Positions 4,178-25,147 of a stretch of 25,147 nt of DNA are shown here, one piece after another. This DNA is from a virus (taxonomy: Duplodnaviria > Heunggongvirae > Uroviricota > Caudoviricetes): IMG/VR virus record IMGVR_UViG_2740892230_000012; one strand, written 5' to 3'. Under the pieces are notes generated by a model that saw nothing but the letters and a program-made list of their open reading frames with translations, was not told the origin of the DNA and made no database searches. A program made the translations under genes and the position numbers. Position 1 is the stretch's first letter. Each line of letters opens with the position of its first letter.

Positions 4178-4901
4178 TTACTGCGAAAGTTTGTTAATGG
4201 AAAGGAAGCTGCCAAAGTTGCCGACGTTATTGCGAAACTTACAGCCGCTCAGGCATTTGCTGCATTTATCCTTCGTGATATCGGACGTCGGCTGGTCATA
4301 TTCATCCGCGACTGCCGGACCGTGATAACCGCACTCATCACCGCGATAGGTCCAGGTGCAGGTGTTGGCCAGCATGATACGCCCCGGAAAAACAGCACCA
4401 TCCGTTTCCGTCGGTGTGGAGAGCACAAAGGAGGCACTGACCGCACTCANNNNNNNNNNTGGACAGTACAAAGGAGGCACTCACCGCGCTCAGTTCGCTG
4501 CACTGCTCGATGCGCCAGCGGCTGATCACCTCCTGCTCCGGATCGGCGTCGCTGTTTCCGTTGACGAAGTTCACCGCATCCAGAAAACGGGCGTAAACCT
4601 TACGCCGGACCACCGTTCCGCCGACCAGACTCTGCAGATCTTCCGCCATCCCGGTGACCATACCGTACAGGTTAGAAACCGTCAGCGTGGGGCGCGTACT
4701 GGTGCCTTTGCCATTCAGTTCAAAACCACTCCCCTGAATGGGATACGGCTGATACTGTCGCCCCTGCCAGGTGACCGGCTCACCTTTTTCGTNNNNNNNN
4801 NNTCCACCGACCTCTGTCAGGTCGATTTCCCAGAGCACCACGCTGGCCGACTGCTCCGCACGGGTGCATTCATTCAGTGTTTCCTGCCGGATATCCTGCA
4901 T
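4178..4901 (-). CDS. L: minor tail protein L (lambda-like allele, two internal N10 gaps)
   Basis: MQDIRQETLNECTRAEQSASVVLWEIDLTEVGG... and C-terminus ...CKFRNNVGNFGSFLSINKLSQ match recalled lambda L. Confidence 0.85.
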
Positions 4902-5532: not shown

Positions 5533-5770
5533 TGTAACCATAAGGCGGCGTCCACAGAAAGGCCTTCCAGCCCCCGTGCTCAGCCAGAAACGACTCCAGC
5601 GCCGTGGCCTCCTCACGGGAGACAGACAGCGTCACGCTGTACGTTTTCAGGTCAGCGTTCAGCCCGGCAGGCGCACGCTGGGAATAGCCATCACCAAAGC
5701 GCACCGCCCTGACGGAAGGAGCCGATGTCACATCCATCCCGGGTTTCACTTTCCAGCGGAAGGTTTTCAT
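5533..5770 (-). CDS. M: minor tail protein M, N-terminal part (second allele, cut by N-gap)
   Basis: MKTFRWKVKPGMDVTSAPSVRAVRFGDGYSQRAPAGLNADLKTYSVTLSVSREEATALESFLAEHGGWKAFLWTPPYGY, a close variant of lambda M. Confidence 0.75.
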
Positions 5771-6421
5771 CGTCCACCTCCGGAGAACAGACCACCATCG
5801 CGCATCTGTGCCTGAATTTCATCACGGGCACCCTTGCGGGCCATGTCATACACTGCCTTCATCATCTGTGGACCTGGCAGACCATTCGTACCGTCGTTCT
5901 GAATCACCACGTGATTGTTCTGATTAAAATTAATGCCTTCCGTCCGCCGCATCTGCGCCGGACTTCCGGCACCGCCCACATAACCACCTTCCGCATAGCC
6001 CCGCATCAGGCGGTACAGATTGCCGACACCAATCCGGCTGGTCGCCTCCTTCGTGAAGACAAACTCCCCGCGATGAACAATTCCCGCAGGTTCATATTTA
6101 CCCCCCGTCCCCGTAAATCCCCCGGTCGCGAAATGGAAGTTCGCCGCCGCAGCCTGAATGGCCGTCCCCGTGGAGGCAGACGCACCACCACCGAAAGCAC
6201 CGCCAATGGCGCTGCCGATACTCCCGACTATCCCCACCATCGCCTGCTTCAGAAAAATCTCTGTCAGCATGGAGAGCACAGAACGGGTGAAACCACGCCA
6301 GTTCTGTTCGCTGCCGGTCAGCATCGCTGCCATATTCTGTGCAATACCGTCAAAGGTCTGCGTGGCCGCGTTTTTAACCTGCGAAAAACTGTCCGTCGCA
6401 CTTTCCGCCCACTCGCCCCAG
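5767..6421 (-). CDS. H: tape measure protein H, C-terminal ~190 aa (second lambda-like allele)
   Basis: MAAMLTGSEQNWRGFTRSVLSMLTEIFLKQAMVGIVGSIGSAIGG...GGKYEPAGIVHRGEFVFTKEATSRIGVGNLYRLMRGYAEGGYVGG... matches recalled lambda H C-terminal region. Confidence 0.8.
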
Positions 6422-21693: not shown

Positions 21694-22299
21694 TCATCGA
21701 AGGCATTGCGTCCTGATGTATTCCTGAAGCGTTCTCAGTGCTGTTTGGTCGCTGATGATTCCGTCCCGGATACCGAGAACGTTTCGTCCAGCAACTGGAG
21801 AGAGTTCGACGGTGGCATCATTGCCCATGCCGGAGGCGCTGGAGGTTTCGGCTGAGGATGGCACAGGGCATTTTCCTTTGACGAACACCCGACCACCATT
21901 ATCAAGCTTGCGCCGAAGAGCATCATTTTCAGCTTTCGCATCAGCTAACTCCTTCGTGTATTTAGCATCGAGTGCATCAGCAGAACGCTGGCGCTGCTGC
22001 ATGTCAGTAATGGTGGCGGTCGCCTGCTTCAGCTCACTGACTTTTTTATCTCGCTGTTCTTTGTAGGCGATGGCGTTATCACGGTAATGATNNNNNNNNN
22101 NTGCATCGAGCGCAGCAACATCACGCTGACGCATCTGCATGTCAGTAATTGCCGCGTTCGCCAGCTTCAGTTCTCTGACATTTTTGTCGCGCTGGGCTTT
22201 GTAGGTAATGGCGTTATCACGGTAATGATTCAGCCCCAGACTAAGCACACCACAGGCTACCAGCAGGACAATAATCACCACACACAGAACACGGTTCAT
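21694..22299 (-). CDS. Rz: i-spanin Rz (contains N-gap at 22092 with a duplicated allelic segment)
   Basis: [83 protein letters not shown]... matches recalled lambda Rz through the N-terminal half. Confidence 0.85.
21735..21941 (-). CDS. Rz1: o-spanin Rz1, lipoprotein embedded in the +1 frame of Rz
   Basis: [44 protein letters not shown]... has a lipobox (VVGC) and a proline-rich mature region, fully nested in Rz as in lambda. Confidence 0.75.
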
Positions 22300-22300
22300 A

Positions 22301-22387
22301 TCACCACCAACGGATTGCCCAGACCAGAACAGCAATGGCCACAATACGAATGGCAAATGCCATTGCCCGAATAAGTTCAGCACTCAT
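22301..22387 (-). CDS. hypothetical 28-aa hydrophobic peptide directly upstream of Rz
   Basis: [28 protein letters not shown]; its stop TGA lies 1 nt before the Rz ATG; below the ORF-track length cutoff, found by manual translation. Confidence 0.25.
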
Positions 22388-22517
22388 CTTTTTAAAGTTC
22401 ACGATTTCAGCGCAATGACCAGTTTTGCCAGCCCATACAGCATCGGAGACACAGCAATACCGACCGCCACCCACTTAATAGCAAAAGCCAGCGCTCTGCT
22501 GATGTCATCAGTCACTG

Positions 22518-22649
22518 TCACCCCAGCAGCCCCGACGAAGACAACATCACCCAGGCGAGGGACAGAAAAAGAGCAACCAGCATTAGTGAAAATGAAATAC
22601 CGACAATCACACACAGGACCTTTGCCGGCGTTATGAGTTTGTCTGACAT
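22518..22649 (-). CDS. hypothetical 43-aa single-pass membrane peptide
   Basis: MSDKLITPAKVLCVIVGISFSLMLVALFLSLAWVMLSSSGLLG; AAGGGG Shine-Dalgarno 5 nt upstream of the ATG. Confidence 0.3.
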   Translation of the reverse strand: MSDKLITPAKVLCVIVGISFSLMLVALFLSLAWVMLSSSGLLG

Positions 22650-22651
22650 AG

Positions 22652-22747
22652 CTACCCCTTAATTGCCACAATTAACTGGGATACTACCCATAAAAAAGGG
22701 ATGCTCCAGACCAGCAAAAATTTCCAGTTTGGTAATTGACTAATCAT
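22652..22747 (-). CDS. hypothetical 31-aa single-pass membrane peptide
   Basis: MISQLPNWKFLLVWSIPFLWVVSQLIVAIKG; GGGAG about 9 nt upstream; its stop overlaps the Shine-Dalgarno of the next peptide. Confidence 0.3.
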   Translation of the reverse strand: MISQLPNWKFLLVWSIPFLWVVSQLIVAIKG

Positions 22748-22810: not shown

Positions 22811-22858
22811 ATAAAAACAAAACCCCGCTTGCTGCCAACAAACGGGGTTTTTACTTTT
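22811..22858. terminator. bidirectional intrinsic terminator-like hairpin downstream of the endolysin
   Basis: AAAACCCCGCTTGCTGCCAACAAACGGGGTTTTTAC: CCCCG/CGGGG stem flanked by A-run and T-run. Confidence 0.5.
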
Positions 22859-22941: not shown

Positions 22942-23624
22942 TTATCTGTCGATACCCCAGCACGCCAGCGCGCTCTCCTGGTCACGACGGGATACCTGAC
23001 CGTAGCAGTTGTTTGAACGAATACGGCAGTCTCTGCCACCGTCCTTAATCCACCNNNNNNNNNNCTCACTTACATTTTGCCAGTTCGCAGGATTTCATGT
23101 TATCCGCCCGCGTGGCCATGCCTTATTTTTCNNNNNNNNNNCTTGGCCAACGTCATTTATTAGCAAAATATTCTGCTTATCTGTCGATTCCCCAGCACGC
23201 CAGCGCGCTNNNNNNNNNNTGCTCCCCTGCGATCACCAGCATTAATTCGTCTGTAAAACGTCGACGGGAAACACTTACCGGGACCAATGTTGTACGGACA
23301 GAATGACGCGATCCCCGCTTTCTGGGGTTCGGTCAATGGCACTCTGATGTTTTTCTCCACCCATGCCAGCGCCTTATCACGTTCGATGGCGTTAACCTGG
23401 TCGCATTTCTCCTTCGACAACTTCATGCCCGGGACGACAGGTTTACCATCCACCAGAATGGCACCGCGACAGATGGTCCAGATACCCGCGCCATCACGGT
23501 ATGCCGTGGTGTGGTTACCTTCCTTTTCATCCAGAAACTGGTCGAGAATGTCAGGCGCAGGCGCACCAGCGGCAATCAGCGCCAGAACGGCAGCCGACAG
23601 GCCGTATTTGATTTTGGTGTTCAT
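22942..23624 (-). CDS. SAR endolysin, GH24 T4-lysozyme family (span inflated by three N10 gaps and duplicated C-terminal segments)
   Basis: MNTKIKYGLSAAVLALIAAGAPAP is a Gly/Ala-rich weakly hydrophobic N-terminus typical of signal-arrest-release domains; catalytic spacing E-8aa-D-5aa-T in DEKEGNHTTAYRDGAGIWTICRG; C-terminus ...WIKDGGRDCRIRSNNCYGQVSRRDQESALACWGIDR. Confidence 0.85.
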
Positions 23625-23660
23625 GGATATATTAAATATTCAGCCGCTGTCCCTGGCCCA

Positions 23661-23847
23661 CTAAATACGCACTTTAAGATAAGTCAGCCCCGGATGAAGC
23701 CAGTAAGCCGGCACTTTTTTAAAGGGTGGAGTATTAAAATCACGAAGAAGAGCCTCCCGCACAATTGCATCCTTATCAGCACCACTGGCCAGCGCTTCAA
23801 TCTCAGCAGCTACCTGCAGATATCCCATGCAACGGCCAACGCGCTTC
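23661..23847 (-). CDS. hypothetical protein X, C-terminal fragment (copy 3), directly upstream of the endolysin
   Basis: ...CMGYLQVAAEIEALASGADKDAIVREALLRDFNTPPFKKVPAYWLHPGLTYLKVRI-stop, 36 nt before the endolysin ATG; visible part is soluble and not holin-like; N-terminus lost in the N-gap at 23848. Confidence 0.4.
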
Positions 23848-23857
23848 NNNNNNNNNN

Positions 23858-24232
23858 TCCTCACTGTGCTGGTGCGATGGAGGTGTTACTTTCCCATTTT
23901 CTGAGATGGTTATTTTCCCAGCATCACCGGATACAACAAAGGATGGCCGGTTACACTCCCATTCCTGATCTTTATCAGGTGCAGACGCAATAAAATAACG
24001 TTTATTTCCTTCCTCTCCGGCACTTTTAACCGTAATGGAGTACTCAGACTGCAGACAAGACGCCTCTTTTTCTGACCGCAGTGTTGACGGCGGCATCTTC
24101 AGAGAACCAGTAATTCTTCCCGGTAGCTTTCCTTTGTAGGTTATCAACACATCCTGCGCCTCTAAAATTATGGGGCGCTTTTCCGGCAACGGTTCGTTCC
24201 CTTCACATAACCCGGCAGCAACATCCATGAAA
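23858..24232 (-). CDS. hypothetical Y-family protein fragment (between N-gaps)
   Basis: ...FMDVAAGLCEGNEPLPEKRPIILEAQDVLITYKGKLPGRITGSLKMPPSTLRSEKEASCLQSEYSITVKSAGEEGNKRYFIASAPDKDQEWECNRPSFVVSGDAGKITISENGKVTPPSHQHSE; paralogous to 24243..24463 and 24826..25104. Confidence 0.4.
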
Positions 24233-24242
24233 NNNNNNNNNN

Positions 24243-24463
24243 ATCAGCCCCTGCTTTTTATTGTTCTTCAGGTAATCAATGGCAAATTCAATGAGCGCCT
24301 CACTATGCTGGTGCGATGGCGGTGTTAATTTCCCATTTTCTGAGATGGTTATTTTCCCGCCATCTCCGTATACAACAAAGGATGGCCGGTTACACTCCCA
24401 TTCCAGGTCACTGAAATTATCATTATGAATACTGAAACACTCTGCGAGATTTCTGCTCATCAC
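24243..24463 (-). CDS. hypothetical Y-family protein, N-terminal part (cut by N-gap at 24233)
   Basis: MMSRNLAECFSIHNDNFSDLEWECNRPSFVVYGDGGKITISENGKLTPPSHQHSEALIEFAIDYLKNNKKQGL; GTG or ATG start 38 nt after the upstream gene stop. Confidence 0.4.
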
Positions 24464-24497
24464 TTTCCGGCAATAATCGTAAAACGCAGCAAACTGC

Positions 24498-24748
24498 TCA
24501 TCGCGGCGTTTTTTTTTCAGGCTGCTGAAGATGCTCTTTCAACCAGGAAGCGCAGCTTAGATTCGCCGCGCGATCAAGAATAGCTTCTTTCATTTCGTCT
24601 GCTGCAAGCACCTCATTTTTTGTTGGGGTACTTTTTTTCAATTCAGCGATATAGCACTCCAGTTTTTCAATGCGTGATTCAACATCATCTTTTTCTGACC
24701 GCAGCGTTGACGGAGGCATCTTCAGAGAACCAGTAATTCTTCCCGGTA
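24498..24748 (-). CDS. hypothetical Y-family protein, C-terminal part
   Basis: ...GSLKMPPSTLRSEKDDVESRIEKLECYIAELKKSTPTKNEVLAADEMKEAILDRAANLSCASWLKEHLQQPEKKTPR-stop; contains an A9 homopolymer on the coding strand. Confidence 0.4.
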
Positions 24749-24825
24749 NNNNNNNNNNCTGATTTTTGCGTTCATGGATATTTATCAGGGTTTATCGATT
24801 TCAAATCCCTGGATATGTTAAGTCT

Positions 24826-25104
24826 TCAGGCCAGCGGTGGAGTCTTCAGAGAACCAGTAATTATTCCCGGTAGTTTTCCTCTGTAGGTTATCAACACATC
24901 CTGCGCCTCTAAAATTACGGGGCGCTTTTCCGGCAACGGACCATCCCCTTCACATAACCCGGCAGCAACATCCATGAAAAACTGCTTCGCCTGCTTTTTC
25001 GCCTCAGCTTCGTAAAACTCCAGCGTGGCACCTTCAGTACGGTCAAGACTAATCGCCACATCTGGCAACAACAGTGACGGATACCCACCAATTTCCAGTG
25101 CCAC
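24826..25104 (-). CDS. hypothetical Y-family protein (paralog ending ...GSLKTPPLA)
   Basis: MALEIGGYPSLLLPDVAISLDRTEGATLEFYEAEAKKQAKQFFMDVAAGLCEGDGPLPEKRPVILEAQDVLITYRGKLPGIITGSLKTPPLA; likely GTG start with no clear Shine-Dalgarno; followed about 50 nt downstream by a second endolysin start variant (ATGAACGCAAAAATC at 24775). Confidence 0.35.
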   Translation of the reverse strand: MALEIGGYPSLLLPDVAISLDRTEGATLEFYEAEAKKQAKQFFMDVAAGLCEGDGPLPEKRPVILEAQDVLITYRGKLPGIITGSLKTPPLA

Positions 25105-25147
25105 AGTAACAGTAATCTTATCCGGGTAATTATTTATCCCTTTAACA

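Follow-up and report, generated by a model that had tools for sequence, protein, structure and literature searches.

A predicted SAR endolysin in a lysis cassette of the Qin/Stx-phage type, with a phage-21-type holin gene expected just beyond the window edge

Overview of the lysis cassette

The window analysed here, a stretch of 25,147 nucleotides of phage DNA, most probably (at a probability of about 0.9) ends within the lysis cassette in the late operon of a lambdoid Escherichia coli prophage of the Qin/Stx-phage type, the holin gene of which would lie just outside its edge. An earlier note, made from the sequence alone, had described a signal-arrest-release (SAR) endolysin with no recognisable holin beside it and had treated this as an anomaly. 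Such a call of a "holin-less SAR endolysin" can arise where the edge of a window meets an assembly that is fragmented and collapsed, and the holin-ydfR-endolysin arrangement is an already known, standard layout of E. coli prophages.

The cassette would comprise, in this order, a phage-21-type pinholin S, a YdfR protein of variable length, an R21-like endolysin exported by Sec, one to four mini-membrane peptides, Rz/Rz1, and the terminase. By analogy with phage 21, and in agreement with what has been published on the cassettes of Stx phages, the endolysin would be exported by the Sec pathway, and its weakly hydrophobic N-terminal segment would restrain it in the inner membrane in an inactive state until the pinholin, having accumulated, would trigger and depolarise the membrane. 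The SAR segment would then exit the bilayer, allowing the enzyme to refold around an active site formed by E35, D44, and T50 and to cut the peptidoglycan, after which the Rz/Rz1 spanins would disrupt the outer membrane.

Scaffold composition

The window consists of 37 pieces, the joints of which are all exactly 10 N long, and the region of the lysis cassette takes up the last eight of them, with all cassette genes, and all features described below, on the minus strand. From position 22942 to 25147, the pieces represent the same genes in alternative versions, and their layout is not colinear. Open reading frames crossing the N runs are artefacts, and what the earlier note had called two alleles and a mosaic block is the product of a short-read scaffold collapsing several near-identical prophages. 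Many of the pieces in the lysis and tail regions are alternative alleles of 59-200 nt set side by side, their true order being lost. Since the order of the pieces in the scaffold is unreliable, the linkage of the first endolysin allele to a given upstream copy is taken from relatives, in which the pieces 24243-24748 and 23220-23847 abut directly. Scans of the window for Rfam families and tRNAs returned no matches, and no stx genes were visible in it.

Endolysin

The endolysin gene is distributed over several pieces. Codons 1-135 of an R21-like enzyme of family GH24 are located at 23220-23624 (ATG at 23624, in the piece 23220-23847), and the 3' end, comprising the last 36 codons and the stop at 23052-22942 and ending in ...ESALACWGIDR, is found in the piece 22942-23054, about 16 nt of the gene having been lost in the gap between pieces. 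Two short pieces of 67 and 68 nt (23065-23209) hold alternative endolysin 3' ends with post-stop sequence and map to positions 5731-5844 of the related E. coli O104:H4 locus (L001) and 4511-4624 of phage PhiR5_1 (L002). A second endolysin allele is represented by its first 17 nt only (24759-24775, encoding MNAKI), and MNAKI(R/K)YGLS is the commonest N-terminal allele among the relatives.

The translated endolysin matches the Pfam family Phage_lysozyme (PF00959; E = 3.4e-24) and shares 89% identity with RrrQ of the K-12 prophage Qin. A comparison with the PDB retrieved the endolysins R21 (3HDE/3HDF) and RrrD (4ZPU) as remote homologues, at E values of about 1e-16 and in the same alignment register. 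In the translation, a catalytic triad E35-x8-D44-x5-T50 was identified at 23475-23522 following the motif definition of PMC9239132, so that both the lysozyme domain and the E-x8-D-x5-T triad of an R21-type SAR endolysin are present.

The N-terminus reads MNTKIKY-GLSAAVLALIAAGAPAP, with K4 and K6 preceding a SAR-like, weakly hydrophobic segment YGLSAAVLALIAAGAPAP at 23553-23606. SAR domains have been defined by two to three basic residues followed by a segment of transmembrane (TM) length made up mostly of weakly hydrophobic residues (PMC9239132), and the N-terminus studied here conforms to this definition, showing K4, K6, and then YGLSAAVLALIAAGAPAPDI with 50% G/A/S/T. Its hydrophobic core is short, with about 14-16 residues, and the Kyte-Doolittle maximum over 19 residues amounts to 1.74, which is borderline for a TM helix, versus 2.11 for RrrD. 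Among the relatives, the segment ends in AGA-S in 65 of 107 alleles and in AGA-P in 37, the latter being the form of the window allele as well. By the -3/-1/+1 rule, AGA|S is formally cleavable by signal peptidase and a proline at +1 argues against cleavage. Because the two forms thus differ in their formal cleavability, assignment of the enzyme to the R21-type SAR endolysins, which the sequence hallmarks suggest and which agrees with the earlier reading, is given here as a prediction, albeit a well-founded one.

[quoted passage not shown] For the RrrQ-type subfamily, our literature search returned bioinformatic predictions and no experimental paper, and the endolysins of Stx phages have likewise been predicted to carry SAR domains (PMC8136144).

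There is a small chance that the N-terminus is instead an ordinary cleavable Sec signal peptide, the enzyme being soluble in the periplasm and controlled in some other way. The short core, the low hydrophobicity maximum, and the -3/-1-compatible AGA-S of most related alleles would fit this explanation, and a precedent exists in T4 RI, whose presumed SAR domain is reported to have proved cleavable (PMC8385771). What tells against it is the proline at +1 in the window allele and over a third of the relatives, as well as the homology of the endolysin to R21 and RrrD, with the triad in the same register. The expected pairing with a pinholin points in the same direction, given that holes so small are of use only if the enzyme has been exported and is restrained by the membrane, and constitutive secretion of an active lysozyme during late expression would give untimed lysis.

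YdfR

Two partial genes had been described upstream of the endolysin alleles, provisionally named X and Y. X (23661-23847) comprises the last 61 codons and the stop of a long YdfR/DUF1327 protein cut by an N run. All of its 61 residues are identical to the C-terminus of an open reading frame of 296 aa in the viral contig L037, which stops 36 nt before the lysozyme gene, the same spacing as in the window. In E. coli O104:H4, the DNA matching X belongs to a single open reading frame of 268 aa (L001, 4381-5187), stopping 42 nt before the lysozyme gene, with a DUF1327 N-terminus (148 bits) and a match to phrog_1085 over residues 132-268. Y (24826-25147) is a short ydfR allele from codon 9 to the stop (Pfam DUF1327, E = 1.3e-29); its fragment 24826-25104 scored 102.7 bits against PF07041 (cutoff 25) and the long forms 136-148 bits, placing them all in the YdfR/DUF1327 family. 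The distances given in the earlier note hold: the stop of X at 23661 lies 36 nt before the ATG at 23624, and the stop of Y at 24826 lies 50 nt before the start of the second endolysin allele at 24775.

Further parts of the long variants are present on separate pieces. The piece 24243-24748 encodes the middle of one of them, namely the coiled-coil region and the start of the C-terminal domain; being located directly upstream of 23220-23847 in four related contigs (L073, L047, L043, and L074), it supplies most of the missing 5' part of X. An alternative middle part, of the 268-aa type found in O104:H4, occupies 23858-24232 and is 98% identical to L001 4572-4945.

No segment of TM grade was detected in X or in the short and long forms of DUF1327, with Kyte-Doolittle maxima over 19 residues between 1.16 and 1.31 (1.16-1.18 for X), in agreement with the earlier description of the genes preceding the endolysin as soluble-looking. 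N-terminal TM helices in the full-length X protein, which would have made it the holin, are missing from both the 296-aa (L037) and the 268-aa (L001) open reading frame, so X, being the C-terminal part of a DUF1327 protein devoid of TM helices, is ruled out as the holin. A search with PF04971, the phage 21 holin S family of proteins of about 70 aa with two TM segments, likewise gave no match to X, to full-length YdfR, or to the four small peptides encoded downstream.

YdfR of K-12 has been listed as a cytosolic protein and as an interactor of RNase E in a 2026 study (PMC13232886). A sequence search of the PDB with the long YdfR yielded no match, and a structure prediction for the 296-aa form, based on an alignment of 30 sequences, was of low confidence (mean pLDDT 50.8, pTM 0.32).

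Within the long ydfR piece, positions 24509-24517 form a T9 homopolymer, read as A9 in the coding direction; the corresponding stretch measures 8 nt in the relatives (A8 or AAGAAAAA) and 7 nt in L074. Were it 8 nt long in the window too, the codons on either side of it would be in frame (QQPEKKRRDEQF), and the extra base splits the open reading frame in two, reflecting either a sequencing error or pseudogenisation.

Holin

Searching the 25-kb window by tblastn with phage-21-type and lambda holins revealed no holin (best E = 0.69), as had been stated before. The probable reason is that the window stops about 30 nt too early, inside ydfR at codon 9. In the alignment with E. coli O104:H4 (L001), its last piece starts at a point 24 nt into ydfR, which is 28 nt downstream of the stop of the holin gene.

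Gene order in related prophages indicates what is to be expected there. The order class II holin (71 aa), ydfR family gene, lysozyme, Rz is annotated in O104:H4, in phage PhiR5_1, and in the K-12 prophage Qin (essQ-ydfR-rrrQ-rzpQ/rzoQ), the holin stop being located 3-4 nt before the ydfR start in all three. The upstream open reading frame of the relatives matches the Pfam family "Bacteriophage P21 holin S" at E = 9e-33 and is 80% identical to K-12 EssD. To survey this position more broadly, we collected 120 IMG/VR contigs containing the exact terminal 38-mer of the window, 110 of which extend at least 243 nt further upstream. Of these 110, 106 contain an intact homologue of the holin, whose end lies about 30 nt upstream of the 38-mer, the other 4 contain a damaged copy, and none is altogether without it. 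In 63 contigs, as in the window, 372 nt separate the 38-mer from the ATG of the lysozyme gene. From these relatives, we infer that a holin gene would follow about 30 nt beyond position 25147, in line with that part of the earlier note which had suggested a membrane-depolarising partner further upstream. Counted as present at a coverage of at least 80%, the unit of holin, ydfR, and lysozyme was detected in about half of the complete E. coli genomes (2765 of 5426), which, together with its presence in Qin, gives no support to the reading of the cassette as an anomaly.

In about 32 of the 110 related holin genes (L017, L026, L034, and about 30 other IMG/VR loci), an ATA stands in place of the first ATG (IHQMEKITT...), leaving Met4 as the only start; these genes would give the shorter product only, without the dual-start (antiholin) form.

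It is very improbable that the window derives from a decaying cryptic prophage remnant, its holin deleted or broken and its endolysin truly without a partner in this genome. The damaged holins among the relatives (about 4%), the long ydfR copy split by the +1 homopolymer change, and the very fragmentary assembly could be taken as signs of such decay. Against this, the last piece of the window shows 100% identity, over 389 nt, with the contigs L044, L060, L083, and L024; in L044, for which the open reading frames were listed, an intact holin gene lies directly upstream of ydfR. Moreover, the terminase, head, and tail genes in the rest of the window look complete as a set, and the homopolymer change may be a mere sequencing error.

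Comparison with known lysis systems

The closest described counterpart is the cassette of K-12 Qin, which shows the gene order expected here, a DUF1327 gene standing between those for the class II holin and the lysozyme, and whose ydfR (L003, 8055-8366) belongs to the same Pfam family as that of the window. The two differ in the length of YdfR, which has 103 aa in Qin and either 114 aa or, with extra C-terminal domains, 268-296 aa here. They differ as well in the spacer before the lysozyme gene (36-50 nt here, an overlap in Qin). In addition, Qin has no counterpart of the four genes for small TM peptides that separate R from Rz here.

With phage 21 (S21/R21) and prophage DLP12 (essD-rrrD-rzpD), the relatives of the cassette share the P21 holin S family, their holin being 80% identical to EssD, and the endolysin of the window has the weakly hydrophobic N-terminal segment and the E-x8-D-x5-T register of R21 and RrrD. 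In DLP12, as in phage 21, the gene for the holin adjoins or overlaps that for the endolysin, whereas here ydfR would stand between them. The endolysin, with its predicted SAR domain, represents a distinct Cys-rich subfamily, matching R21 only remotely (E = 3e-16).

Many Stx phages match the window DNA at 92-93% identity. Those of the 933W/H-19B type carry, as the present cassette is expected to, a predicted SAR endolysin, a P21-family pinholin, and Rz/Rz1 downstream of nanS-p, while the presence of ydfR or of the small peptides varies by phage. The combination of a predicted SAR endolysin with a P21-family pinholin has been described for almost all Stx phages (PMC8136144, PMC10462455).

Small membrane peptides and spanins

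Between the endolysin and Rz genes lie four tightly packed open reading frames (22301-22747) encoding single-TM peptides of 31, 43, 40, and 28 aa, the last of them separated from the ATG of Rz by a single nucleotide. All 87 relatives having both R and Rz contain one or more frames of this kind, in mosaic combinations. Every copy found was intact and pN/pS ranged from 0.11 to 0.60, so they look like real genes. The four peptides gave no match in Pfam (E up to 1) or NCBIfam and matched only PHROGs without assigned function, no holin, antiholin, or releasin family being hit in any of these collections.

One of these peptides had been proposed in the earlier note as an alternative depolarising partner, and a holin-less or unconventional system can be conceived, in which the endolysin is freed by a small TM peptide from the R-Rz interval that works either in the manner of the Mu releasin or as a novel mini-holin. 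[quoted passage not shown] Nevertheless, this explanation is scarcely credible, because in the relatives the peptides are invariably accompanied by an S21-type holin and thus do not replace it, match no holin or releasin family, and fall far short of the Mu releasin in size. With 28-43 aa, they are essentially without a soluble domain, whereas the releasin gp25 of Mu has 99 aa, including a cytoplasmic domain of 73 aa, and belongs to DUF2730 (PMC9239132), a family excluded for the peptides by the negative Pfam search. What the cassette has in common with the gp22/gp25 pair is the lysines at the N-terminus of the endolysin and the position of TM-protein genes a few genes downstream; Mu is holin-less, and the relatives of the present cassette carry a holin. 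A peptide as depolarising partner is therefore not needed.

[quoted passage not shown] It is YdfR, the mini-membrane peptides, and the predicted SAR domain of an RrrQ-type endolysin, all within a very widespread lysis cassette of E. coli and Stx phages, that give the locus its residual value.

A strong terminator-like hairpin with a 15-bp stem (6 G-C pairs) followed by a T run is located at 22819-22851, between the endolysin stop and the first peptide gene, and is presumably read through under Q antitermination. In 3 of the 87 relatives, an Ant/KilAC antirepressor gene is inserted between the endolysin and peptide genes, overlapping the start of the first peptide (in PhiR5_1 at L002 4817-5512), which marks the R-Rz interval as an insertion hot spot.

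The cassette is completed by a two-component spanin, consisting of an Rz with a Phage_lysis domain and an Rz1 embedded in it in the +1 frame. The i-spanin Rz (21694-22299) was identified by Pfam Phage_lysis (PF03245; E = 1e-31) and by phrog_13 on the L001 orthologue, and it is artificially lengthened in the window, two allele pieces having been joined across the N run 22092-22101. The o-spanin Rz1 (21735-21941) has 68 aa and displays a lipobox-like VVGC motif, its cysteine following LIMVVG.
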